Positions 9,573-60,855 of a DNA stretch of 64,000 nucleotides are shown here, in pieces. Position 1 is the first letter of the stretch. Each line of letters starts with the position of its first letter. Below the pieces are notes generated by a model. The model searched no databases and was not told the DNA's origin. It was given only the letters and a program-made list of their open reading frames with translations. The DNA is from Amphiscolops sp. MND2022 (lineage: Eukaryota). The stretch is from contig OZ076409.1 in NCBI GenBank assembly GCA_964187785.1, forward strand, positions 68,636,001-68,700,000, written 5' to 3'. Position numbers and translations under genes: made by a program.

Positions 9573-11144
9573 ATGTTCAAACGCACGGCTTGGGTCGACA
9601 CTTTGGATAAAAACGAAACATCCAACGTTGAGCCGACAAAGAGCTGGACCGATTCCCTGGACAACTACTTAGTCGCAAATACCCTTGGATGGTTGAAGCA
9701 GTTCATAGCTTGGCGCTACCTCCTGTTTTTTATCCTGTGGTGTTTTTGCATAGTCCTTTCGTTCGTTTTCATCAGCAGTACTTTTCTGGAATATCAGCAA
9801 AGTGGACCTATAACGACTACAACCTTTGCAGACTACCCCGAAAAACCAGACCCCGTGATCGTCAAAATTTGCAACAGCGTCTTCCTGGACACTCAGAAAG
9901 TACTGGAATATAATGGAACTGAGTTTGCTTATAATACGTATGAGTTCTTATACGAAGCAGCTTCCGGTAATTTCATGTTTGATGATTCCAAATCGGTCAT
10001 GTCAACTTCGGTTAACGATATGTTTTTCCTCAGTAACAGGATTATAGAAGAATTCAAGCTGGATATTGACATGTTTGTGGGATCTTGCTATGTTGTGGGA
10101 ACCTATAGGGACTGCATTCAAGATTTCAAATGGCATCTGGATATAGAAACGTCATGTTACCAAGCACAGATAGATCTTGGAGGTTACGGCAGAAATCGGG
10201 CTCTCAAATTGGGTTTCTTTTTCAACCCTGAAATTCAACTGGGAAAATATATATCACAAATGGGAGCTTATGTGACGATCTTCCATCCTGATCATTATAT
10301 ACCTTACTCGAGTGGGTTTTTCATAGAAACCAAGGATTTCATAATTGTATCGGCAACAACCGAACATAAAGTTCAGAAACAGTCTTTTGAGAAAGCGAAA
10401 TGCAGAATGGTAGAAGGTCCTTTGTCTTATAACTACACAGGAGAACCATTCGAAGTCAAGTACAACAAAGAATACTGCTCAATACTATGCTCTGCAGAAG
10501 CATACTACACTGAATGCAATTGCTCACCCTTTTATGGTATGAACCAAACCAACACCGAGTGTCTTGAAGACGAGCAAACCCGGATGTGCTTGAAAGGCCT
10601 GGGAGTATCACCGGACAGAGTGGAGAAAGCGAGCCAGAAATGTATGACTGGATGTTTAAACAAGTGCAAGCAGACGTACCTGAGAACCACAGTTTACAGA
10701 GAAAGAAACAAGTACACTAAGTTCAAGTTTTTAACTCTACTTCATGACTTGACCACCCAGTACGAGTACCAGTCCAGAATCTCAGCCTACATATCCGGAA
10801 GACTTGCAGCAACTGACAACATTTTGGAAGAAGCCGACAAACTCAAGGATGGAATTGCTTACGTCACTTTCTACCTACAAAGCAACGAACAAGAAGTCGT
10901 GGTTGAAGTTGTACCTTTCATGACCTTTGCGACCTTCGTCAGTAACATTGGAGGACTTCTGGGTCTCTGGCTCGGTTTGAGCGCCATATCTATTATCGAA
11001 TTTTTACAGAAGGGTTCTAATTATATAATTCTCATGCGAAACACCCTTAGTCGTCCCTACAGCCGAAAACCGAAGCATTCTGGTAAAAATGGTCAATTTT
11101 CACAACACCACGACAACTCAAAACCGAAGGCAGTGTTCGGTTGA
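9573..11144 (+). CDS. DEG/ENaC (amiloride-sensitive sodium channel family) subunit, paralogue 1; coding region intronless, 523 aa
   Basis: Hydrophobic TM1 (YLLFFILWCFCIVLSFVFI), post-TM1 PDPVIVKICN, Cys-rich thumb (CSILC..ECNCSP..ECL..C..C..C..C), and TM2 with FVSNIGGLLGLWLGLS (GxS selectivity filter). Confidence 0.92.
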   Translation: MFKRTAWVDTLDKNETSNVEPTKSWTDSLDNYLVANTLGWLKQFIAWRYLLFFILWCFCIVLSFVFISSTFLEYQQSGPITTTTFADYPEKPDPVIVKICNSVFLDTQKVLEYNGTEFAYNTYEFLYEAASGNFMFDDSKSVMSTSVNDMFFLSNRIIEEFKLDIDMFVGSCYVVGTYRDCIQDFKWHLDIETSCYQAQIDLGGYGRNRALKLGFFFNPEIQLGKYISQMGAYVTIFHPDHYIPYSSGFFIETKDFIIVSATTEHKVQKQSFEKAKCRMVEGPLSYNYTGEPFEVKYNKEYCSILCSAEAYYTECNCSPFYGMNQTNTECLEDEQTRMCLKGLGVSPDRVEKASQKCMTGCLNKCKQTYLRTTVYRERNKYTKFKFLTLLHDLTTQYEYQSRISAYISGRLAATDNILEEADKLKDGIAYVTFYLQSNEQEVVVEVVPFMTFATFVSNIGGLLGLWLGLSAISIIEFLQKGSNYIILMRNTLSRPYSRKPKHSGKNGQFSQHHDNSKPKAVFG

Positions 11145-21378: not shown

Positions 21379-22438
21379 GAGCAGTTTTTGGGTTTGTCTA
21401 AGATCTGAAGTACATCCAGGCATGCTGATGGACCACATTGATTCTTTCACATTTTTACGTAACTTAAACTGAACAGAGAATTTTTGTAGTTTAAAATATT
21501 ATTTTTGGTCAAACAGTTAAGGCTGGAAGGTGTCGTAGCTGAATGAACAAAAATTGCAGTGTAATTTTACTTTTTGTTTGTTTTCTTAGAGCAGTTTTTG
21601 GGTTTGTCTAAGATCTGAAGTACATCCAGGCATGCTGATGGACCACATTGATTCTTTCACATTTTTACGTAACTTAAACTGAACAGAGAATTTTTGTATG
21701 TTAAAGTATTATTTTTGGTCAAACAAATAAGGCTGGAAGGTGTCGTAGCTGAATGAACAAAAATTGCACTGTAATTTTACTTTTTGTTTGTTTTCTTAGA
21801 GCAGTTTTTGGGTTTGTCTAAGATCTGAAGTACATCCAGGCATGCTGATGGACCACATTGATTCTTTCACATTTTTACGTAACTTAAACTGAACAGAGAA
21901 TTTTTGTATGTTAAAGTATTATTTTTGGTCAAACAAATAAGGCTGGAAGGTGTCGTAGCTGAATGAACAAAAATTGCACTGTAATTTTACTTTTTGTTTG
22001 TTTTCTTAGAGCAGTTTTTGGGTTTGTCTAAGATCTGAAGTACATCCAGGCATGCTGATGGACCACATTGATTCTTTCACATTTTTACGTAACTTAAACT
22101 GAACAGAGAATTTTTGTATGTTAAAGTATTATTTTTGGTCAAACAAATAAGGCTGGAAGGTGTCGTAGCTGAATGAACAAAAATTGCACTGTAATTTTAC
22201 TTTTTGTTTGTTTTCTTAGAGCAGTTTTTGGGTTTGTCTAAGATCTGAAGTACATCCAGGCATGCTGATGGACCACATTGATTCTTTCACATTTTTACGT
22301 AACTTAAACTGAACAGAGAATTTTTGTATGTTAAAGTATTTATTTTTGGTCAAACAAATAAGGCTGGAAGGTGTCGTAGCTGAATGAACAAAAATTGCAG
22401 TGTAATTTTACTTTTTGTTTGTTTTCTTAGCAGTTTTT
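21379..22438. repeat. Tandem array of 5 x 210 bp
   Basis: Unit starts GAGCAGTTTTTGGGTTTGTCTAAGATCTGAAG at 21379, 21589, 21799, 22009 and 22219. Middle copies look identical; copies 1 and 5 have a few variants. Confidence 0.95.
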
Positions 22439-25491: not shown

Positions 25492-27490
25492 ATGCTCGAC
25501 CGAAACGCATGGGAACGACCATCAATGACAGAAAGTATGATGGACGACAATTCGTCTGGAGAATCATCTCAAAGTTGGACCTTGGAATTTTTCTCTCTTG
25601 TGAGGAAGTTTTTATCAGTAAGGTCTCTTCTTTGGGTTTTTATGTGGAGCCTCTGTATCGTGATCACTGCATTTTTCATCTATAGCACTTACATTGAATA
25701 TCAAGACAGTGATCCCATAACAACAATAACGTTCATTGACCACCCGGTGAAACCAGACCCCGTTATGGTCAAAATTTGCAACAGCGTTTTTCTGGACACT
25801 CAAAAAGTGCTTAACTACAATGGAACTGGTTTCAGTTATGACTCATACGAGTTTCTATATGAAGCTGCTTCTGGCAACCATATGTTCGATGATTCGAATT
25901 GGGTTTTATCAACCACTATCAACGACATGTTTTTCCTCAGTAACCAAATTCTGGACGAATTTCGACTGGATGTCGACATGTTTCTGGGAACCTGTTATGT
26001 CGTTGGCAGTTACAGAAATTGCCTTCCAGACTTCAAATGGCATCTCGACATCGAAACTTCATGCTACCAGGCGCAAATTGACCTTGGGGGGTATGGAAGG
26101 AACCGGGCTCTCAAACTGGGTTTCTTGTTCAATCCAGATATTCAGCTGGGCAAATACATCGCCCAGCAAGGTGTTTATATCGCATTTTTCCACCCAGATG
26201 ATTATGTTCCCTATTCGAGTGGGTTTTTTGTAGAACCCAAAGATTTCATCGTAGTTTCAGCTATCACAGAACACAGAATTCAAAAAACTTCGTTCGCAAA
26301 GGCGAAATGTCGAAATATAGAAGGCCCCTTGTCGTATAATTTTACAGGGGAACCATTTGAAGTTGATTACCATAAAGACTATTGCTCAAACCTGTGTTTT
26401 GCGGAAGCATATTATGCTGAATGCAAGTGCTCACCCTTTTATGGTATGAATCAAACCAACACCGAGTGTCTCGAGGATCTTGCTGCTCGCGTATGTCTGA
26501 AACAGTTGGGTGCGTTTCCCGAAAAGGTTGTCATTCGTTTTTTTTTCGTAATTTTATCTTGGTATTGGCAGTTTTTGTCATATTATAAATTTTAGTCATA
26601 ATGTTTTTTAGTAATATCATATTAATAAGTACGTTTCAAAAATTTGCCTAGTTAAAACCGAATTATGGATTGTAATTAAAACCTCAATTGGAATTCATTT
26701 TCGAAGTTCAGTTACAACTTATTTCTGTTGCTTAAGGATTTAAAACTATCCGCGTTTCATTTCTAAATGACAATAAAAAAAAGACTGTGTTTTTATACTT
26801 AAACGTTTGGATTACTCATGTGCCTGAAATACCCCAGGAAAAACATTTTTATTAAAAATGAATTTTATAAAATTTGCAGTAATTATTCGACTAATAAAAG
26901 TTAAAAAGAGGTGAAACTTGAATTTCTTAAAGTTGAAGTTTTGTTATCTTTTCAAGGTCGAAAAAGTGAGTCAGAAATGTCTGCAAAATTGCCTGAACCC
27001 CTGCACTCAAACTTACTTGAAAACAAAAGTCTTCAAAGAGAGGAACAAATTCACGAAGTACAAATTCCTCACTCTACTGCAAGACCTTACCGGCAAGTAT
27101 GGCTACAAATCTCGAATCTCAACAATGACCACCGAAAGAATGCAATCCAGCAGTGATCTTTTAGCCGAAGCGGACCAGTTGAAAGAAATGATTGCCTATG
27201 TGACCTTTTACCTCGAGAACAATCAACAAGAAACGGTCGTCGAAGTTGTGCCCTTCATGACCTTTGCGACCTTTGTCAGCAATATAGGCGGTTTGATGGG
27301 TCTATGGTTAGGCTTGAGTGTGATTTCAGTAATGGAGATTTTGGAGAAATGTTTAGCCACATACATGTTTCTCAAACATGCCGTTCGAAGACCAGCCCCA
27401 AAGGCAAAGTCACCGAAGAAAATGCCCGCTCCACAGAGTAAGTCAACTTCTACGCCGATAGTTGTGAGGCCAGCTGAAACCGCTCCTTGA
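25492..27490 (+). CDS. DEG/ENaC subunit, paralogue 2; exons 25492-26526 and 26957-27490, 522 aa spliced
   Basis: Colinear with paralogue 1. A GT-AG phase-0 intron at 26527-26956 (GAAAAG|GTTGTC ... TTCAAG|GTCGAA) restores PEK|VEKVSQKC, matching PDRVEKASQKC. TM2 is FVSNIGGLMGLWLGLS. Confidence 0.9.
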
Positions 27491-43395: not shown

Positions 43396-43444
43396 ATATT
43401 TCAGTAATTAATTTTAAATTCAAAATTATTATAATAAATAAATT

Positions 43445-44556
43445 ATGTATTCAATTCATAATCGAGATGATTTAGAAAAATTAAAAAAATTGCAAGAATC
43501 AAAATCTTTAATAAAAGCTGAAAGATTAAAACAACTCCTAGGGAAGCAAGACTTTCATTACGATATGGAAGAAGTCTTTGAACCTGTTACTGTAAAACAG
43601 GCTGAAGCTACTAAAAACCAGAAACAATTATCTGAAAAACAAAGAAAATCTATTAACCAGCAAACCCAAGCAGTACGTGATTCTTCTCAAACAACAGTAC
43701 AAGCAATAGAAAATCAAACACAGGCTATTCGAAAATCGAGTAAAGCTATGAATACAAATTTACAAAAATCGACTGAAAAAGGAATACAGGCCATTGGCCA
43801 GCAAACCCAAGGGTTTGTAAAGGAAATGATGCAATTACTAACCGTAATAATCAACTTGGTACAGATTTTGTTAATTCAAACCAAGTTGATTCAAGTATTG
43901 TAAAGACAGTTTCCAACTTCCTGAACACCCAAAGTCAATTCAGATTAGAACCTGTGGAAGGTAATCCAAATTTATTCATAATTAATCCTCTTACTAATCC
44001 TCAACAGGTATTAATCAAAGGTTCAACGATGACTTTCCAGAATGGTAACACATATAATTTAAATGATCCGTATCTTTCTTATTTTATAACTAATGTACAA
44101 ATAGATAAAGAAATACAAAACGAGAATCTAAATTATAATTTTTCAAAAGATGTGAAATATGATCTGAATTATGGAGATAAGAAATCAAAGAGGTACTGTT
44201 TCATTAAACATTTGATTAATCAATACACCTATCGAGAGATTTCTTATCAACAATCCCAATTGGGAAGTTGATTAAATCAGTATACTCGGGCTAGTAGCCC
44301 AAGCAAATCTTCGATTTGTACAGGTCAAAGACCTGCAAGTCCTGTGGTTTGTATCTTCCTCCCATCTGATCCAGATGAGCTTGTAGATCATTTTAAACTA
44401 ATCGTGTTAGAAAAAGTGGGAGGAAATGATAATCCTATGCTGAGCGAACAAATCATAGCAATTGTAGATAAACTATTACAATACCAATGTATTACAACAA
44501 ATCATCATCGAAACCTTATAAGCACTTTTACTAAAAAGGATAAGTTTGTGGATTAA
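43445..44556 (+). pseudogene. Polinton uncharacterised coiled-coil protein(s), disrupted
   Basis: ORFs 43445-43903, 43954-44271 and 44344-44556; EEVFEPVT, Q-rich coiled coil, and C-terminal FLPSDPDELVD...GGNDN motif. Confidence 0.5.
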
Positions 44557-45565
44557 ACACCTTGAACTCCGGATTAGATTCATTACATATCATGTATTTT
44601 TTGTCATTTTTATCTTCTAACCTGTTTAATAATAAATAGTTTTACTTCTCCAGCCATGCTTCTCTGAATAAACTTTTAAATTCATCATAAGACATATCAA
44701 AACCAGCAATATCTCTGTATATATGTTCAACATCTTTCAATGTTTGTTGAAATAAAATTATTATATTCGAATTGTTTCTATTTGTTCTTTTAGGCAAATC
44801 GAAATATGACTGTGATAAATAATAAACATCCAGATCCTTATGTCATTCCCTAGTAAAAAATGGATCTATTAATTTCTGAATACTATCCAACATACCAACA
44901 AACACAACACAACAATTTTGAAAATCTTGTACTGTTCTATCATCTAGATCTTCTTCCACTGAAACCTCTTCTAATTCAAAATTCGAGTACCGTAGGGCAG
45001 CTTCGCTGTATTGTTCAGGACTCCTCGTTAATATTTTTATTTGTTGTTCAGGATTATCCAAGCGAGTTAATTCTAACTTGTTTAATAACAAATGGGTCTT
45101 TCCACGAAATGATGGGCCAACTATCAATGTCCTATTTCAATTATTATGCAAAGCCAGCGTAGCTGTATCAATTTGATTATTATTATCATCAATTTGATTA
45201 TTATGATTTTCATTATCATCATCAATTTGATTATTATCAATTTGATTATTATCATCAATTTGATTAATATCATCAATTTGATTATTATCATCAATTTGAT
45301 TATTACTTAAATATATAATACATCTTTTTAATTGTTTTAATAAAAAAGTTTTATTGAATTCCTTATTACAGAATTCACATTTTACTTTTTTATTGAATTA
45401 TTCTGTACATGTACTATACAATTTATCATTTTTATATTTGAAAAAATCTGTTTTCAGTATATTACACACTTTACATCTTTTTTTATTACTACAATCATCG
45501 CACAGCTTTGCTGGCTTTGCATACACAGAAGTTTCCTTACTTTTTCCACAAATTAAACACTTCAT
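44531..45565 (-). pseudogene. A32/FtsK-like packaging ATPase 1 with N-terminal Cys-rich domain and NNQID repeats
   Basis: One frame from ATG 45565: MKCLICGK..CDDC..CKVC..CTE*..CEFC, then (D)DNNQI repeats, then LIVGPSFRGKT (Walker A), decayed Walker B CVVFVGML and FFTRE* (TRGRH-like), YYLSQSYFDLPKRT.RNNSN. Stop at 44531. Confidence 0.8.
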
Positions 45566-45733
45566 TTATTTAGTAAAAAAATCACTAAGAGCACTAAGAA
45601 AATAACTAAGAGCATGATGTTTCAAGTGTAGCCTTATATGCTTAGTGCTCAAATAATGCTCTTAGTAAATTTGCTTAGTGATTTTACTAAGAAAATTACT
45701 AAGAAATCAAACCCATTTTTTTGGGTACTTATT

Positions 45734-46729
45734 TCATTTTAAACTAGTCGTAATGCCTGCTTTACCGTAGGCGATTGCTTGTTCCATTATTATATTCTGA
45801 AATTCCTGTTTAAGTGAGTCTGAAATCAGTGGTTGTTGCCATCTATCGATGTATTTGTCTATTTTAGATTCATTTACTTCAATTTTATTCTGTTTACAAT
45901 AATATACATATTAATAACCTACATTAAAAGGTGTTATTTCAATTGTTTGATCTGACGTTTCTTCTGAAAACACCTTGAGTTTGTTGTATTCTTCACCTGT
46001 AATGAAATAACTTTCATATTTTACATAATCCACGGGACTCCATTTATGTTTAGTTGTATCATATTCTACTTGGTAGTTGTGGTTGAGTATTTTATACTTT
46101 TGTGATCTAGTATCAAATTCAATTACACCAAATTCTAACTGACTACGATATTGTTTCCAACTTAATTCTTTGATTGCATAAGTTTGTCTTATGGTTTCAA
46201 AGAAACTATCTGGATTGTTAATTGTTATGAAGATCTTAAAACAATTCTCTGTTACAACTTGAAGAACATCCTTTGCATAGTGTGCAAGATAAATAACTTG
46301 TATATTATGATAACTACCAAATTTAAACAAATCTTCTACTTTTATTCTAAGGATTTTATAAGCACCTGCATCGTCTAAAATTATCGTTCTATTTGCAAGT
46401 TTCTCTATTTCTATTTTTTCTAACTGCGACAAAGGTATATAATTATCTTCAAACTCATTTTCATCTCTACCGAATACTAAAAAATTTGTTTTAGTTTGAT
46501 CTAAATATTATTTCAAGAAACTAGTCTTACCTGATCCACTGGTACCATAAATTAACATATGACAATTTGTATGCGAAAGTGGTTTAGATTGAGATACTTC
46601 TTCAGGTTGATTAGCTAAATGAGATTTTTTAAATCCCTTGAATTGTTTTAGTTTTTGGTAAAATTTTTCGTAATGTCTAGGTCTAATATAATACCAATAA
46701 ATATATAAAACTATAAAAAAATTACACAT
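45734..46729 (-). pseudogene. Second A32-like P-loop ATPase
   Basis: HMLIYGTSGSGKTSFLK (Walker A), RTIILDDAG (Walker B), FKFGSYHNIQVIYLAH..KDV..ENC; internal stops at 46508 and 45911. Confidence 0.75.
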
Positions 46730-46769
46730 AATAAAGCTATATAAAATTTTTTATTCATTCAATAATAAA

Positions 46770-47629
46770 TAATTGAAAGAAAAGAAGAAAAAATTGCTAA
46801 AGAAACATTTTCTCCTGTAATTAAGAAGTTTTAAAGAATTCAAATACAAACTCACTATGAAGATGAGTGTTGGAGTATTGATCTGATAGACAGGTCTAGC
46901 TTAGCAAAATACAACAAAAACTACAAGTTTATTTTTACATTAATTGACAATCATACTAAATATGCATGGGCGATTCCTCTTAAAGATAAATCTGGAAACA
47001 GTACAACAACTGCATTTAAAAGTCTTATTGAAAAAGCAAAAAGAAAACCTGATAAAATTTGGTCAGATAGAGGTAAAGAGTTTTATAATAAAACATTTTT
47101 GGAATATCTTAATCAAAATGAAAATCAAATTTTTTCGACTCAATGAGATTCAAAAGTTGTTTTTGTTGAACGATTCAATAGAACACTTTTGGACTTAATA
47201 AAAGAACCCATGTACATTGAAGGAAAAGCTTGTTGGTTGAATTATCTAGGTACTGCTATGGAAAAATATAATACTCGTGTGCATACCACAACCCGCATGA
47301 CACCTTTTGAAGCTAATAAAAAACCAATAGATCACCCTACCTTCTTTGTTAATAAACCGAAACAACCCAAATTCAAAGTCGGCGACTATGTAACAGTTCC
47401 TGATAAACGCAATTTATATAGTAAATGTTATACAACAAATTGGAATAGAGAACTTTTTAAAATACATAAAATTAATCCAACTAACCCAGTTACGTATGGT
47501 TTAGTAGATGAAAACAACGAACAAATAGAAGGAAAATATTATGAACAAGAACTTTTAAGAAGTGTATTCAATTTTAAATCTAACAACAAAACGTTAGAAA
47601 GTATGATTATTTTCCATCGTTATGAGTAA
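46770..47629 (+). pseudogene. int: Polinton retroviral-like (DDE) integrase
   Basis: WSIDLID..FTLIDNHTKYAWAIPLKDK..IWSDRGKEF..VERFNRTL..YNTRVHTTTRMTPFEA..FKVGDYV..TTNWNRELFKI..GKYYEQEL; two in-frame stops. Confidence 0.92.
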
Positions 47630-47646
47630 TTATATTTAAATAAAAA

Positions 47647-48279
47647 ATGTCAATTCATAAATTTGGTTATAGTGCCGAAAGCTTACAAAAAGATAAGATT
47701 GAGAATCTAGAAAAAGAATTGGAATCACAAACCAAATTATTCAACTTAAAACTTAATGATATAACTGATAACCTACAAAAAGTACAAGAAATTATTTTTG
47801 ATAATGGTGAAACCAAGGTAGTAGTCAATGCAAAGTTATCCTTAGACATAGACAAAAATATCGAAGACTTGAAATTCAACCTGAAATATTTAGAACAAGA
47901 TATTAAAAACAAATTATTAGAAAAGAAGAAAGAAATTATTTCGGAAGCAGTCAAACAAGTCAATGAACAACAAGTCATTTTACGTAATCACTTCGAACGA
48001 AACATTTTTGTAGAATTTGAAAAATGTAAAAATCAAGCAGTCAAAGATACTACTCAATTATTATACAACAAAGGATTGTTTGACTCATTTGAAAATAAAG
48101 ACCAAATCTTTATTGAATACTTATATTTTAGTGATGAATACTTGTTGGAAAAATACGGAAAAGAAATACAGACATCAGATGGTGTGTACTATTTATCAGA
48201 CTTAAACTATTCAACGCGAGAAGATATCGTGAAGTGCTTGAAAAAAGATGAATACAAAGATATAGTTGACCTTAAATAG
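47647..48279 (+). CDS. Polinton accessory coiled-coil protein of unknown function (210 aa, intact)
   Basis: Uninterrupted ORF between integrase and MCP with K/E/L-rich heptads; no recognisable motif. Confidence 0.55.
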   Translation: MSIHKFGYSAESLQKDKIENLEKELESQTKLFNLKLNDITDNLQKVQEIIFDNGETKVVVNAKLSLDIDKNIEDLKFNLKYLEQDIKNKLLEKKKEIISEAVKQVNEQQVILRNHFERNIFVEFEKCKNQAVKDTTQLLYNKGLFDSFENKDQIFIEYLYFSDEYLLEKYGKEIQTSDGVYYLSDLNYSTREDIVKCLKKDEYKDIVDLK

Positions 48280-48384
48280 AGAATGAAACTAACCGATACT
48301 GAGATAAATTTTATACTTTTTGAAAACTAATTTGTAAAATTTGAACTAAATACTTTATAAAATTGAGTTTTTATTTAAAATGAA

Positions 48385-48916
48385 ATGAGTGAAAAATTGT
48401 ACTCATGTTTACAACAAAATCAGAATCCTGATAGTCTTGATTTGCGATTGAAAGAAAAAAATAGTTTTAATAATTCAATTCAAAAAATAAAAGATATTCA
48501 AATTTTTTTTAATCATGAAGCTAAAAAGTATAAAAGAAATTTAAAAAATATACAAGCTTATAAACGGTTTAATTCAATCTATTGATGGAGTTTTATTATT
48601 GGGTGTTTCTTCAACTGCTATCGCATTAAGTGTTACCGGAGTTGGACTTATTGTGGTACCCATCGCGAGTGGTATAGGTGCAGGAGTACCCATAATCAGT
48701 AAAATTCTTAACGAATACCTGAAAAGAAAAGAACAACACAATATTAAAAAATAAACTCTTGCTTGTAGAACACTACATGATTTCAGTAAACTACATTCAA
48801 AATGTTTAGAAGACAATAAAATTGATCTGAATGAATACAACAAATTAAAACAATCTTATGATACATACAAAACGAACAAAACTAAACTAAATTCTGAGTT
48901 TACTTTTTTAGGATAA
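48385..48916 (+). pseudogene. Polinton accessory membrane protein, frameshifted
   Basis: ORF 48385-48585 continues in another frame as GVLLLGVSSTAIALSVTGVGLIVVPIASGIGAGVPIISK...CLEDNKIDLNEY. Confidence 0.5.
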
Positions 48917-49056
48917 ATTTTTTAAGTAAAAATAATATAAATAAATTTTTAAATCATCATCATAAATATTTTTTCTTTACAAACCAAAGGTTTACAAACC
49001 AAAAGTTTGCAAACTAAAAGTTTGTGCAGATAAAATTGAATATTTTTTTTATATAA

Positions 49057-50286
49057 ATGGATTTATTTTCATTGAAAAACAAATATGCTATGGATAAACC
49101 TATTCATAAAATTGATTTTATTAAATCCTCACCTAGTAGTTTAGCTACAATTTTTTAAAGTAATTCAAATCTTTCCATCATCTTCCCAAGAGAAGATGCA
49201 TATATTTGTTTGCAGAATTCTTTAATTAGTCTAGAATTTGAAGTTCTTAAAAACGATAATACAAGATATGCTGATGGTGATCAAAAAAGCTTGGTCAACT
49301 TTGGATCCGTTGTTTTATTTAGTGAAGCTAAACTTGTAACATCATCAGGAAAGCATCTTGAGAAAGTTGATAGCCTACACCCGGTGTGTTTAATGTATAA
49401 ACTTTTAACAAGTACCCAACAAACAAGTCAATTGATGTACGGATTTGAAAAATCACAAGCAACTAGAAGACAAGAACTAACAACAAACAAAACAGAAAAA
49501 GGAACCTTTTTTCTTAGAATAAAACTAAAAGACTTGTTTGGATTTGCTGATCGAGAAAAAATAACTTATGGATTGGGTTACACTCTTACTTTAAAACGAA
49601 ATAATATTAACGACCCTATCATCAGGGACAACGGTGTTGATGCTGCAAAAAATGTTATAAAAGATATAGGTTGGTACATTCCACACTATATTCCTAGCTT
49701 AGAAAACCAGCAACTCGTGATGGATCAAATATTAGACAAAGATCCAACTGAATTATTTTTTACCGGAAGAGTTGTTTTTAGAAAAGATGTTAACACCAAT
49801 AACAATTGGACATTTGAATTAGGCAACAGTGGAGAATCAACACCAACTTTTGTAATTGTTGGATTTCAAGCTAGAAATCAAAATGATTCACAATCACACA
49901 ATAATGCAACATTTGATAAACTCCCAATCAGTAATGCTGTTTGTAAAATAGGATCAGAAAAATATCCCGATGATGGAATAGAATGTGATTACGACCGCGA
50001 CAAAGATGATCAAGCATACAGTGAAATCGAAAACTTTTATCACTTAAAAAGTGAAACTAACCTACTCAACCCATTTATTGATTTGCACAAATTCAGAACA
50101 AATTATAATTTTTATGTATTTGACCTAAGCAAACAAAAAGATCACATTGCTTCTCAACCAATTAGATTAGAATCTAAATTTAGTGCTGCCATTGATGTAG
50201 CATACTATATAGCTTATGCCCTAGTCCTAACACCCAAGCTGATAAGTATCAGTAGTGATGGACAAAGGTATTTTGATTTATTATAA
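49057..50286 (+). pseudogene. Polinton major capsid protein (double jelly-roll), one early in-frame stop
   Basis: ATG 49057 is in frame with ORF 49210-50286, with a TAA near 49156. Beta-rich ~410-aa protein with LFSEAKL, IKLKDLFGF, LTLKRN, WYIPH, PTFVIVGFQ, YPDD, FYVFDLSKQ. Confidence 0.8.
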
Positions 50287-50461
50287 GCAAAGCTCTTTCA
50301 GTAAATAAATACAATATATAAATTTATAAAATGATAAGGAATCTCTGATATCAGAGATTCCTTATTTAAAAAATATAATTTTACAGCTTATAATACAATA
50401 AGCTGATATATAATAAAGAAATTTATAAAATAGTTTTTTTATTTTTATAAAATGAACAAAC

Positions 50462-53400
50462 TTATAAAACATGTGCTCGATCATTTATCAACTTCACAAG
50501 TTGTTGATGGGTGAGTGCTTGTTTCCAATACCAAACATTGAAATAAATTTCTTCATCGGTTTTCTTGCTACCGTCATCATTTATAGTTAATTCTTTATAA
50601 TACAAACAAATTAATTTCAGACAATATATACAAGGGCAATCGCCTTTTTGAGTGTGTTTATCCCATGGTAAACATTGTATTGGATTCATACACAAACGTT
50701 TATCGTCAAAAGGATTCAAACACAACTTTGGTTGTTTTTCAACTGTAAGGTTGTGTAAATTAGATCTAATTGATAACCTTGTGGAACTTGATGTTTCTGG
50801 ATTAAACAATGAATTCTGATATCCTTCACATTTGGGAGCTTTTTGTATTCCTTTTTGTTTCGCTTTTTGATTACTATTATAACTGAAAGAATATGACTTT
50901 GATCGCAATGCTATAAAACTATCTAACACCAAAACTGGACTTGATTCAATTTTCATTTTTCCTATAACTTTCTTGTTAATAGGGTTATATAATTCATGAG
51001 ATTTATCTACTTCACTGAAATCAAATTAAATCTTTATTTTGTTTTAAAAAGTTTGTTGCTTCTTGGTGGTTTGTATCAAAACTAAGTATGAAAGAATCAG
51101 TATCCATGTAGTGTAGTTGTACTTTATTTTGCCAATATGGTTCTAAAGTATGATAATAAAATTCATACATTAATAGTTTACTTAATTCTAACACAGAGAA
51201 CCCCAAATAAATTGGTTTATCAAGGACTGTTTTTTCTTTATCAAATTTGTACACACTAAACTTAAAATAATGATCCATGATTCCTTTGAAACTTAACTTG
51301 GATTGTCTTTTTATTATTTGATCTATTTGAGAATGATAAATGAATTCTAGATTGGTTCTATCTCTTACATTTTCCATTGTCTTACCAAAGAACGCATTGT
51401 TCATTAATTTATACAGGTCTTTTTCAAAGTTTGTTTTTGCTACTGTGCGTTTTTGGTGTTATGATCGATATTTTTACCTAACCATGGACTTTGTTTGAAG
51501 CGGTAGATTGTATGTATCTTCGTTACTTTCATCCCCTGGTTAAGATAAAACTTAAACATCCTATAATGTATCATATAATTCGATTTATTGGTTACATCAC
51601 ACATAAGTTTTGGGGTTGGTTTGTAATTAGGTTGATTTACATTATTCATATAAGCTGAGAATAAGTCTAGATCTGCTTTTGATTGATACGGACAAAAAGG
51701 AAAGTTTTTTGTTTTTTCCTTTATTTCAACAGGATATTCTAAATCACATTCTATAAAGTAACCAAATTCATTTTTGTCTGGAATAACTCTCAAATCTTCT
51801 ACAATTTGTTCTAGTATATACTCTTCTGGTAGTTGTAGTTTTTCGAATTCACTTGTAGGAAGGTATTGACTCATTGCCCATCTATACAAATTATTTGCAT
51901 CAATGTATAAGATTTGTTTATTTTCGTTTGATTCAACAAATCGATCTCCCATTACACTTGAGATGCCTCCCCGTATATTGTTTTCTAGAAGTAGTAGTAG
52001 GTCTTTATCTTTATAAAATCTAACTTTAAATTAGTTAACTTTAATCCAGCTTTCCATGTATAACCAGGTAGAGAGTAACTATACAAAGGATTAATTTTAT
52101 ATTCTCGTGAAGAACTTTCCACAAAGTTTTCGAATACATCAGCTAATTGAAGAACATCCATTTTTAAATATAACATTGTTAATTCTTGTCCGTTCTTTAT
52201 ATTATTTTTATCAATTAATTCTTGGGTTCTTTTTATATCATCATCTGATGGATAAGATTGTGTTAATGTTGACCAATAATCTTCTTAGGTTAGATTAAGT
52301 GGTTTATCAAAATTATCCAAGTTAAAATATGCATATGAATAAGATAACTTCTTCTTAAATAATTTATCTATATATCCAATTTCATCCATTACAGGTAAGT
52401 TGTCTAAACTTTTAACTAATTTATCTAAACTACTACTTAGAAAACGGTATGAATCCAGGAAACAAAAGCAACCTACTTGAATTGATACATAATTTTCTAT
52501 TGACTTTGGGATTATTTTTGGTTCATACCCTTTTTCGAAAGCTTGTATTAAGAGTTTTTCAAATATAAGATGACAATCATACCCCGAAAAGTTATGGAAA
52601 AGTATAGGAACAAAACTTGATGACTTTTGTTTTACATTTATGTTACATATATTATGAGCTGCTCCTCTGTATTTTCCTGTAAGATGATCATGATCTCTTA
52701 CTTTATGCAAAGCTGTATCTTCAGTAAAAGGTTGTTCACAAAGCCAACACTCTTCTGCTTGTTCAAATTGTACTTCTTCTTCTTGACTCATTTCTAATTC
52801 TAAATTTGTTTTAAAATATTTTGATGCAATTTTTTCTAAAGTCAACATTTTATTTACAAACCATTTAGTACAGCTTTGCTGCCCTCCGGTACAATCTGTT
52901 CCGAAGTATGAATAATACTTGCTTTCATATGGTGAAATTAAATAAAATCCTACTGCAATTGGAATTTGTTTAAATAATACTTTGGGGTCTTTTTGAGGTT
53001 GATTAATGCATTCAAAATCTGCATATACTCTTATTGGTACAGGAACTTTCATATAAAAATTTTCAAACTTTAACTGATTCTTCCAACTGAATGTAATTTT
53101 AGTTGGTTGTTGATTAATACATCTTTCTATGAGGTTGTTTAGAACATCGTTTGAATAAAATGCAGTAAAACATCTTCTACAAACATGTTTCATGTGTGAA
53201 TCTTTATTTATTAAACAATGTAACTTTGTAATTAAACAAGAGTGATTTTTAAATAACATTAAATCAATTTGTGGTTGTTTGTAATTTTCGTTAATATAAA
53301 TTGGTGTTAAAACATTTCCAGTGAGTTCAAATACATTTATACCATGACCTCTGATATTCAATTTATTAAGTCTTTCAAATTTGGGAATGTCTTTAACTTT

Positions 53401-54250
53401 CATAGGGAATTCCAATCCTTTTAGGTTGAGTTTATTCTCATGCATTAAATATTTTGATATTCTTTCTTTATGATCCTCAACAGGATATAAATATGCTAGG
53501 ATACACCATAAAAAACAATATTGATCAATATTTTTTATATTTATAATTGATTTACTATCCTTATATTTTCCTGGTAACTCAATGTATGAAGATGCTTGAA
53601 TATCTCTAACTTTATATATTTCTAATAAAACTTCTTCTCTTTCTTGAAATTGGAAACCTGATCCTTCCAATTGGATATCGTCTAATTTCTCCATTAATGT
53701 GTTATGAGTATCTTGTTGTGTAGCGGACTGCAAGTGATTATATATTAGATCTGATTTTATCCATCTTTTAAATACTTCTTCTTCTCCATTGACTATTTTT
53801 GAAAATTTAGATAGATAACTCAATTGATATTTATATCGGGGAAAGTAATTTTTATCTAGTAATTCATTTATGTTATGTTCAAGATTTTCACTTGGATTTA
53901 TTTTTAGTTTCATGTATAATTTTTGATTCACAATTATTTCCACGCCTACCAAAGTTTCTACACTGAAAGGTGTATCGAAGGCGCTTTGTTGATGCCGGTT
54001 GTGAATTTCACTTTGGAAATGTCTTGTTTTATCTGTTTTATATTTACCACATTCTTCACAGCATACTTTTTTATTTTTATTTTTATGTTCATCTGAATTT
54101 AAATGAGAACTTTTATCTGAGATATGTATATATAAATTACATAGATTACAATAATATTGCCCTAATTTTTTTGATGTTTTACTGACTTATTATGAGGTAA
54201 TTTGAAAGCTTTTTTACAATATTTAAAACACAAATATTACAATATCCCAT
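50462..54250 (-). pseudogene. polB: Protein-primed family B DNA polymerase, frameshifted
   Basis: Exo motifs YADFEC, HNFSGYDCH, YLKMDV; polymerase motifs YIDANNLY, KLMNNAFFGKT, YMDTDS; embedded CWLC..VRDHDHLTGKYRGAAHNICN (endonuclease VII-like); N-terminal Cys/His fingers. Split over ORFs 52285-53952, 51985-52176, 51440-51952, 51021-51404 and 50462-50956. Confidence 0.95.
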
Positions 54251-58435: not shown

Positions 58436-60855
58436 ATGACTGTCAAGCCCATGGTGAATACAAACGCATGGGGCTCCCACGAGGAAACCGAAGATGTGCT
58501 GGCAATCAAAGCCTCTGCTGTGTCTTCTGACAACGACTGGGCAGCCGAAGGATACTTTGTGTTCAAGAAGTTCCTCACATTAAGGCATGCATCGCAGAAG
58601 CTCACATATCTTTTGCATGAAATTTTCCATGAGATGGATGTTTTTTTAGAACCATATCCAAGCCAAAGCACAGGAGCCCTAGCATTTTGGAATTCCACCA
58701 TGATTCCATTCATCCATTCATGCAACTATATGGTTTCAACATGGAATCACATGGAAAACAGGGGTGGTAGGTTTCAGTGAAAATTAATAAAACCTCATGA
58801 TTTTGGATCCCAAGGAAATTTTTTTCTAACTTTCTGTAAATAAATCTTCTAAACACTCATGGGTGTTTTACGAGCTCGTTTAACAATGTTAGCATCTGCG
58901 ATCTATGTCTCCAGGTTCTTAATATGGCTCTTAATGTGGACGTTTTGCATAACAGTTTCTATTCTGTTCATTCACAGCACTTTTGTTGAATACCAAGAAA
59001 GCGATCCCATAACCACAACTACATTTATTGATGGTAAGCCAAAACCAGACCCAGTAATTGTCAAAATCTGCAACAGTGTTTTCTTGGACGCCCAAAAGAT
59101 TCTCAAATACAACGGAACTGAATTCAATTATGACGCATATGAGTTTCTATACGAAGCGGTGTCTGGAAATTTCTTATTCGACGACTCAAAATGGGTCGTT
59201 TCGACATCAGTCAATGACATGTTTTTCCTCAGTAACAACGTTCTCGATGCGTTCAGATTGGATGTCGACATGTTTCTGGGAACCTGTTACGTGGTTGGGA
59301 GTTACAGAAATTGCATTCCAGACTTCGAATGGCATCTTGACGTCGAAACTTCATGCTACCAGGCACAAATAGACCTTGGTGGCTACGGGCGAAATAGGGC
59401 TCTAAAACTGGGTTTCTTTTTTAACCCAGACATCCAGCTGGGCAAATATATTTCCCTGCCCGGGGTTTATGTCACGTTTTTCCATCCTCGGGATTACATT
59501 CCATACTCGAGTGGTTTTTATGTGGTGCCAAAAGATTTTGTGGTCGTTTCAGCAACCACTGAACACAAAGTTCAGAAAGCTTCCTTTGAGAAGGCTAAAT
59601 GTTTCGAACCAGACGGTCCCCAGTTTTATAACTTCACAGGTGGGCCGTTTGAAGTTGAGTACAACACGGAGTATTGCTCTAACCTGTGTTTTGCCGAAGC
59701 CTATTATAATGAATGCGACTGTTCGCCATTCTATGGAATGAATCAAACTAATTCGGAGTGTCTGGAAGAGGAAGAAAAACGGTTGTGTCTGAAACATCTC
59801 GGAGCCTTTCCTGAGAAAATCGAGAACTCCAGTAAAGAATGCTTGACCAAGTCAGTATTGAACACATCACTTCAAAAGTTTTTTTTAAAAAAAGATAACA
59901 AAATTGAACGGCGATCAAATATAAAGATGAAAACAAACTAGAATTCACAACACGAATATGCAGAAATTTTTTTCATATGTTGTAACAATTAGCTTCAAGT
60001 TGTTGAATTGAGCGAGTGTTAAAAAATTAATTCGAAATCTTTGATAAAGTAAGTATGAGCCATCCATGTTTTGATATGTTTTGTTTGGCATATAATTGTC
60101 TTCAATTGTTTCGTTTTCATTTTCTCATCCGTGAGATCTGAGCTATATATTTTGCTTTATGTGGTAATTGAAACGAGGAAAATATATTCCGGCTCTTCAC
60201 AATATTTGAAAAATAACAATTTCACACGAGGTAAAATAAAAAGAGAACTACAAGTATTTCTGCAAAAAAATGCAAAACCTAAAACGTTTTCATTTTTTTA
60301 TGTGTACAACACTGCGTTAGGTGCTTGAACAAATGTTCCCAAACGTACTTGCGAATGACAGTTTTCAAAGAGCGAGACAAGTACACCAAGTACAAAATAT
60401 TGACGCTGTTACAAGATCTAACTGCGCGGTATGGGTACGAATCTAAAATCTCAAAATTGATTGCCCAAAGAATGATGCTCAGCGGTGACCTTCTAGCCGA
60501 AGCGGACAGACTGAGAGAAAGTATTGCTTACGTCACATTTTATCTTAAGAACAACCAGCAAGAGGTTGTCGTTCAGATCGTCCCCTTCATGACCTTTGCG
60601 ACCTTTGTGAGCAACGTTGGGGGGTTGATGGGACTCTGGCTGGGTCTCAGTGCCATTTCTATAATGCAATTCTTAGAAAAAACTGTGGCTTCGACGATCG
60701 TGTTTCGACATACAGTCCGAAGGCCTATCAAAAAACCAAAGGATCCCGAATCCCCCAAAAAACCAACTTCTAAAGCTTCTCTAAATTACCCACGAGATTC
60801 AGACAAAGAAGTTGCTTTGAAAAGCAAGAGAGGCTCGATGCCTACTGTTCAATAA
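58436..60855 (+). CDS. DEG/ENaC subunit, paralogue 3; exons 58436-58584, 58915-59850, 60321-60855; 539 aa spliced
   Basis: Splicing a GC-AG intron (58585-58914) gives KKFLTLR|FLIWLLMW, colinear with RKFLSVRSLLWVFMW of paralogue 2. A GT-AG intron (59851-60320) gives ECLTK|CLNKCSQTYL, colinear with KCMTGCLNKCKQTYL of paralogue 1. Total CDS 1620 nt; TM2 is FVSNVGGLMGLWLGLS. Confidence 0.88.

Follow-up and report, generated by a model that had tools for sequence, protein, structure and literature searches.

An old single-copy DNA transposon as the probable origin of a predicted GC-AG intron in a DEG/ENaC channel gene

Introduction

How might a coding exon that reads without interruption in its closest relatives come to carry a 330-nt insert with a splice signal at either end? 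The question is raised by p3 (58436-60855), one of three DEG/ENaC channel paralogues, the others being p1 (9573-11144), which is intronless, and p2 (25492-27490), which has a single intron. All three are located in the window analysed here, a stretch of 64,000 nucleotides from contig OZ076409.1 of Amphiscolops sp. MND2022. The original prediction had taken the p3 insert for a cryptic intron of introner type, made by a transposon after the gene had been duplicated.

The source of new introns is a long-standing question, and the route from transposon to intron is already known, being reported rarely in animals by the published surveys. In the main text of one of these an introner family is defined as at least four similar introns reaching both splice boundaries, splice sites are described as recruited from the duplicated target, and introners are given for only two animal groups (Gozashti 2022, PMC9860276); the main text of a later one adds a few more, among them the sea urchin, names Styela and counts about 82% of the classified introner families as terminal inverted repeat (TIR) elements (Gozashti 2025, PMC12130899). 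Both surveys rely on copy similarity. Singular transposon-derived introns are described for many eukaryotes in the main text of Mikina 2024 (PMC11282704).

Results

The host gene

Spliced as in Table 1, p3 reads from ATG 58436 as one stop-free frame of 539 aa (KKFLTLRFLIWLLMW), colinear with p2 (RKFLSVRSLLWVFMW) and with p1. Its predicted exon 1 is homologous to the N-termini of p2, P0021 and P0004, with which it shares AW, N[DE]W and KKxxTL motifs (identities of 14/43 to p2 and 15/44 to P0021), and the PF00858 domain together with two hydrophobic segments places the gene among the DEG/ENaC channels. These channels are expected to bear an HG motif before TM1; none was found in frame in the aligned DEG/ENaC clade, and THG triplets close to the start of each of the three paralogues were rejected as this motif since they lie in different frames. 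Exons 2-3 gave pN values of 0.15-0.24 against pS values of 0.64-0.80, and a stop-free frame of 539 codons survived 6-12% neutral drift in 1.4% to 0.05% of simulations. Because pN is below pS and so long an intact frame is rare under neutral simulation, p3 is likely to have stayed functional while carrying the insert. No orthologue of p3 was present among the eight proteins returned by a search with its ORF. Reading the insert as an intron would also correct the model of the p3 gene, left truncated by plain ORF calling.

Table 1. Features of the p3 locus, in window positions
Feature	Position	Strand	Details
Predicted exon 1	58436..58584	+	49 codons + 2 nt
Candidate 8-bp target duplication, left copy CATTAAGG	58578..58585	+	last G would be intron base +1
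Predicted GC-AG intron, phase 2, 330 nt	58585..58914	+	gap-free restoration; best donor/acceptor pair
Left terminal inverted repeat	58586..58607	+	18/22 vs right arm; first C completes GC donor
Second MITE remnant, TA-flanked foldback, decayed, nested in intron	58674..58810	.	nhmmer E 2.7e-13
Rival in-frame GT donor TAG/GTTTCA at 58771 and stop 58778-80	58771..58780	+	donor score 2.2
Rival in-frame ATGs 58859 and 58886, with TTAAC 58880	58859..58888	+	mechanical ORF calling from 58859 yields P0007
Right terminal inverted repeat	58886..58907	-	18/22 vs left arm
Candidate target duplication, right copy TCTCCAGG	58908..58915	+	would supply AG acceptor
Exon 2 (TM1 and extracellular domain)	58915..59850	+	PF00858 E 1.7e-18
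Second predicted intron	59851..60320	+	arms 59853-59867 and 60300-60314, 13/15; CAGT… ends; 2+6 nt spacing
Exon 3 (TM2 and C-terminus)	60321..60855	+	PF00858 E 3.8e-12

Structure of the insert

The boundaries 58585-58914 and the junctions of the original prediction (AAG/GCATGC … TCTCCAG/GTTC) proved exact. Excision joins AAG to G, and the gap-free alignment to p2 claimed for it was recovered both in the frame and at the DNA level, where no gap opens at the exon 1/exon 2 junction against the paralogues. AGG does occur twice, once per junction, and the inverted repeat, 18/23 as first written, becomes 18/22 when the element ends are set at 58586 and 58907. This resemblance exceeds that of dinucleotide shuffles, which equalled the 18/23 match in 0/5000 cases and the local end-pair score of 24 in 2/5000, and only 33 of 24,946 genomic 330-mers reached the same level, two of these being the target itself. 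The element would begin with CA and end with TG, a weak criterion alone; a fold z-score of -2.5 only reflects the inverted repeat, arm pairing examined for RNA-level selection gave 10 G·U against 6 A·C (p = 0.23), and an Rfam search yielded no match.

The left arm starts 1 nt inside the intron start and the right arm stops 7 nt short of the intron end. A target duplication of 8 bp, a length that we infer for this site from the spacing and by analogy, would account for the 5-nt offset of the right arm. Its left copy is identical at 7/8 positions to the uninterrupted p2 site (CAGTAAGG), while the two copies match each other at 4/8, with only 1/5 outside AGG; the letters are accounted for equally well by AGG alone as a 3-bp duplication, given an asymmetric end. 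The interior holds the second MITE remnant, called with an nhmmer profile built from genomic copies (at least 55 genome matches), which points to a later insertion and would mark the old age of the p3 insert.

Splice signals

Donors and acceptors were scored against PRP8, whose 33 introns were called by homology to other species, 32 of them entering the matrix. The GC donor scored 6.2, against a PRP8 median of 8.7 (range -0.5 to 11.2); the acceptor, at 6.0, was the best among four nearby AGs. GC donors occur in 2/33 PRP8 introns, both of the form AG/GCA.G, and the target AAG/GCATG fits both. A branch-point-like TTAAC lies at 58880, 31 nt upstream of the acceptor. At the sequence level, donor context, AG acceptor and branch site all fit the insert as a predicted U2-type GC-AG intron. 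Among in-frame pairs 58585/58914 ranked first under the PRP8 matrix (12.2 vs 8.1) and, narrowly, under a looser matrix built on the channel introns (14.5, the GT at 58771 reaching 13.4); the margin of the junction call over the next candidate is only 2.0. TG-rich acceptor tracts set the introns of PRP8 itself (C4:84.10-84.19 Mb, L175-L191), at least 33 in number, apart from those of the channel family. A FastTree tree of the spliced PRP8, with limited sampling, groups the genome with animals (support 98).

Gain of the insert and search for sister copies

The site is uninterrupted in all eight of the closest relatives (p1, p2, L038, L067, P0002, P0004, P0005 and P0021), which are paralogues or unassigned relatives, so the claim that the other paralogues lack an intron here was borne out and extended. 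In the tree p3 nests among these uninterrupted genes, and the intron position is private among 38 positions of the family. A gain in p3 after gene duplication, as opposed to losses elsewhere, is supported because the relatives around p3 read through the site in one frame.

The related introns that a whole-intron genome search was expected to find did not appear: it returned three matches, the intron itself and two short interior ones, and each intron end used as a query retrieved nothing but itself (E <= 10). That the insert belongs to an introner family, in the multi-copy sense of the published surveys, is therefore not supported, neither end having turned up a second time. Arm patterns of 17 and 22 nt had 30 and 75 matches against 12 and 38 in controls, with no paired relative among all 30 matches of the first pattern and the 30 of 75 inspected for the second; the copy search scores the best candidates and skips common words, so that distant copies may escape it and rarity is not proven. 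Several candidates were discarded, namely the common ATCGCAGAAGCTCACTT matches, which fall inside a repeat unrelated to the target, a C2 pair of inverted sequences whose surrounding context is unrelated, and the CATACATCGCATATGCCCACAT family, the end of a repeat of ~190 bp that faces variable flanks and is therefore read as an outer end, of the wrong polarity for a parent. With no sister copy detected in these searches and another, decayed MITE nested in it, the target would be an old single-copy relic rather than part of a multi-copy introner family.

Introns across the channel family

About 100 divergent DEG/ENaC genes, mostly single-exon, are present genome-wide (103 matches to a 200-aa query), and the intron-bearing ones nest among intronless ones. 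From 40 stretches around split members, 72 exon pairs were taken and 70 junctions called by a family HMM and splice matrices; calls with a margin < 5 and three artefact columns were dropped, both p3 introns being kept regardless. This left 49 introns, or 45 at 38 positions after merging near-identical duplicates, all of them homology-based predictions. An end-pair score >=20 was reached by 12/45 predicted introns (11/44 without the target) compared with 11/1980 mismatched pairs and 0/33 PRP8 introns (family vs PRP8, Fisher p = 0.0009); none of 100,000 permutations reached this count. The threshold was picked after the data had been seen, but the observed mean was likewise reached in 0/100,000 permutations. 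The 33 PRP8 introns showed no excess of paired ends. The arms differ from intron to intron, and those of p3 intron 2 are unrelated to the arms of the target. GC donors were not significantly in excess in the family (10/45 vs 2/33 in PRP8, p = 0.06).

Exact splicing combined with an 8-bp duplication requires the intronic bases outside the arms to sum to 8. Such spacing, with arm identity >=11/15, was observed in 7/45 introns against 12/1980 mismatched pairs and 0/33 PRP8 introns; offsets 7 and 9 were found in two introns each and offsets 6 and 10 in seven and eight, which means that the test fixes parity (even vs odd) only, not 8 versus 6 or 10. Duplications are kept at 7/8 in L081 and L162 and at 6/8 in L165, and the acceptor-side remnants of nine such introns matched at 12/35, near chance, even with 15/15 arms.

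The L081 intron (C12 near 13.04 Mb) matches a MITE of ~410 bp at both ends, at 73-77%. This MITE, with GGCTCTTTTCTG ends, is abundant (L081; L174, L185, L219-L248) and showed perfect 8-bp duplications in 10 of the 30 loci examined out of 42 pattern matches; one copy would span the whole of the predicted channel-gene intron. Dispersed copies were thus found for this sister intron, whereas none carrying the target's ends, as a MITE would have, was found in the 1.07 Gb genome searched, nor did the arm patterns of L080, L163 and p3 intron 2 give paired copies with duplications there. Within the 1.12 Mb examined lie other free elements, whose ends read CAG or TAG and whose 8-bp duplications are perfect. 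A further MITE copy (L219:1503-1888), with a perfect AGGTTGTC duplication and GT…AG ends, lies inside a frame of 179 codons; it was not counted as an intron, the frame being without a Pfam match.

Among the other family introns, that of L163 (C12:12814783-12817430) resembles the target in its 1+7 spacing and GC donor and has a perfect 15/15 inverted repeat beginning CATG; its duplication is decayed despite the perfect arms, and no sister copy was found. Introns with unrelated ends share a position in different paralogues at profile column 285 (L081, L163; phase 1) and again at column 243 (L156, L162, L165; phase 1), which suggests parallel gains at one site.

Discussion

Our preferred reading, to which we give a probability of roughly 70%, is that an old DNA transposon, non-autonomous and sitting in a p3 coding exon, accounts for the 330-nt insert, whose exact removal as a GC-AG intron is predicted. 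A transposon origin and a gain after duplication, the core of the original prediction, find backing in the inverted repeat, the repeated AGG, the eight uninterrupted relatives, the enrichment of paired ends across the family and the link between L081 and its MITE. The element, spanning 58586-58907, would have landed in p3 after the duplication of the gene and duplicated 8 bp (NNNNNAGG); we infer both the ends of the element and the length of the duplication. The last G of the left copy and the element's first C would then have formed the GC donor, and the AG acceptor would have come from the right copy, so that excision would take out the element together with the length of a single duplication copy, and the protein would be restored. 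The five bases of the right copy that had become intronic would later have drifted, as would the interior, and the second MITE would have inserted inside.

The splicing part of this reading has to be weighed against two others. It is unlikely, but worth considering, that a transposon-derived insert is spliced from a later GT donor (58771-58914, or 58767 to 58874/58892), perhaps as an alternative form, which would place about 60 extra codons ahead of TM1. The insert does contain the in-frame stop (58778-80) first noticed, but the argument that it must be spliced at the GC donor is too strong, since the GT donor at 58771 precedes that stop. The frame runs open for 64 codons past the GC donor, to 58777, an open run equalled in 0/49 other family introns, even if it arises in 815/10,000 shuffles (8%); the pair 58771/58914 comes close under the looser family matrix, and weak GT donors occur among the predicted introns of this channel family. 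Against it, +3T with +5C occurs in 0/33 PRP8 donors, the donor scores well below that at 58585, and it sits within the nested MITE remnant, which makes it likely to be younger than an insertion that needed a donor from the start. Distinctly improbable is also an insert left unspliced, with translation from ATG 58859 or 58886 giving a short new N-terminus, or with p3 as a young pseudogene. Short N-termini do exist in some paralogues, 20 open codons precede exon 2, and exon 1 alone stays stop-free under drift 57-73% of the time and is hence uninformative; yet 20 such codons before the acceptor are also found in 9/49 other introns, apart from the p1/L038 pair no N-terminus is closer to its relatives than exon 1, and exact splice signals at both insert ends would have to be coincidental. 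The intact 539-codon frame makes it less likely that p3 is a pseudogene of the same age as the arms.

We regard as very unlikely that no transposon was involved, the intron being either an old one that the relatives have lost or the product of a repair-type insertion carrying a 3-nt repeat. A single copy, a decayed duplication and the failure to find a parent family in the genome would agree with such an origin, but an old intron needs loss in several independent lineages around p3, the position is private, PRP8 introns lack such ends, and the probability of an incidental inverted repeat, judged from shuffles, is about 4e-4.

Taken as a transposon-derived intron, the insert most likely works like a TIR introner, while failing the multi-copy test of membership. 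TIR/TSD introners such as Micromonas pusilla IE1 are, in the main texts of the surveys (PMC9860276, PMC12130899), likewise short, non-coding and TIR-ended, with a GC donor, splice sites partly or wholly from the duplicated target and unchanged mRNA length, and in Florenciella (PMC9860276 Fig. 2E) both splice sites are co-opted from the insertion site, as proposed here. They are described there as multi-copy and recently active, whereas the p3 insert is single-copy, decayed and host to a nested MITE, and, unlike in introner families, several unrelated terminal repeats appear to have given one intron each. The introners of Aureococcus sp. (PMC9860276 Fig. 2F) share the 8-bp TSD length proposed for p3 but bring both splice sites with them and lengthen the mRNA by 12 nt, in contrast to the exact excision predicted for p3. 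The MITE-derived introns of Fritillaria borealis are likewise from an animal and have lineage-specific positions, TIR and TSD; as summarised in a review (PMC11282704), conserved introns are ordinary in this species and the MITE-derived ones mostly non-canonical (AG-AC, AG-AT), whereas the predicted channel introns examined here are GT-AG or GC-AG. No published match to the present case was found in main texts searched without the species name, a weak negative.

Transposons of the hAT and P superfamilies generate 8-bp TSDs and have CA…TG termini. The target resembles them in its ends and in its 1+7 (8-nt) spacing, with duplication letters at 4/8, and differs in being linked to no transposase or autonomous partner.

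Taken alone, a single p3 intron is of modest significance, and the more valuable result is the family-wide pattern. A mostly intronless family of ~100 channel genes offers a natural before/after series for intron gain, and about a quarter of the predicted introns examined keep transposon-like ends, one of them traced to an abundant MITE family. It is tempting to speculate, as a possibility that we hold at somewhat less than even odds, that introns are gained genome-wide in this animal from many ordinary, unspecialised DNA transposon families; on the same tentative reading, any element with an 8-bp duplication that lands on AG/G would become an exact intron. If true, the products would persist as fossils in single copy, with nothing but their own inverted ends to identify them, and surveys relying on copy similarity would miss them and under-count transposon-born introns in animals. 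A test that compares end pairing within introns with that of mismatched ends needs no sister copies and could gauge this older layer in any annotated genome.

The window also contains other repeated or mobile DNA. A degraded Polinton/Maverick-like element occupies about 43400-54200, with a double jelly-roll capsid domain at 49159-50286 (PF21738), an endonuclease VII match within 52285-54186 and pieces that, on inspection by eye alone, resemble a polymerase, an ATPase and an integrase. A tandem array at 21379-22438 consists of about five copies of a 210-bp unit with 96-99% identity.
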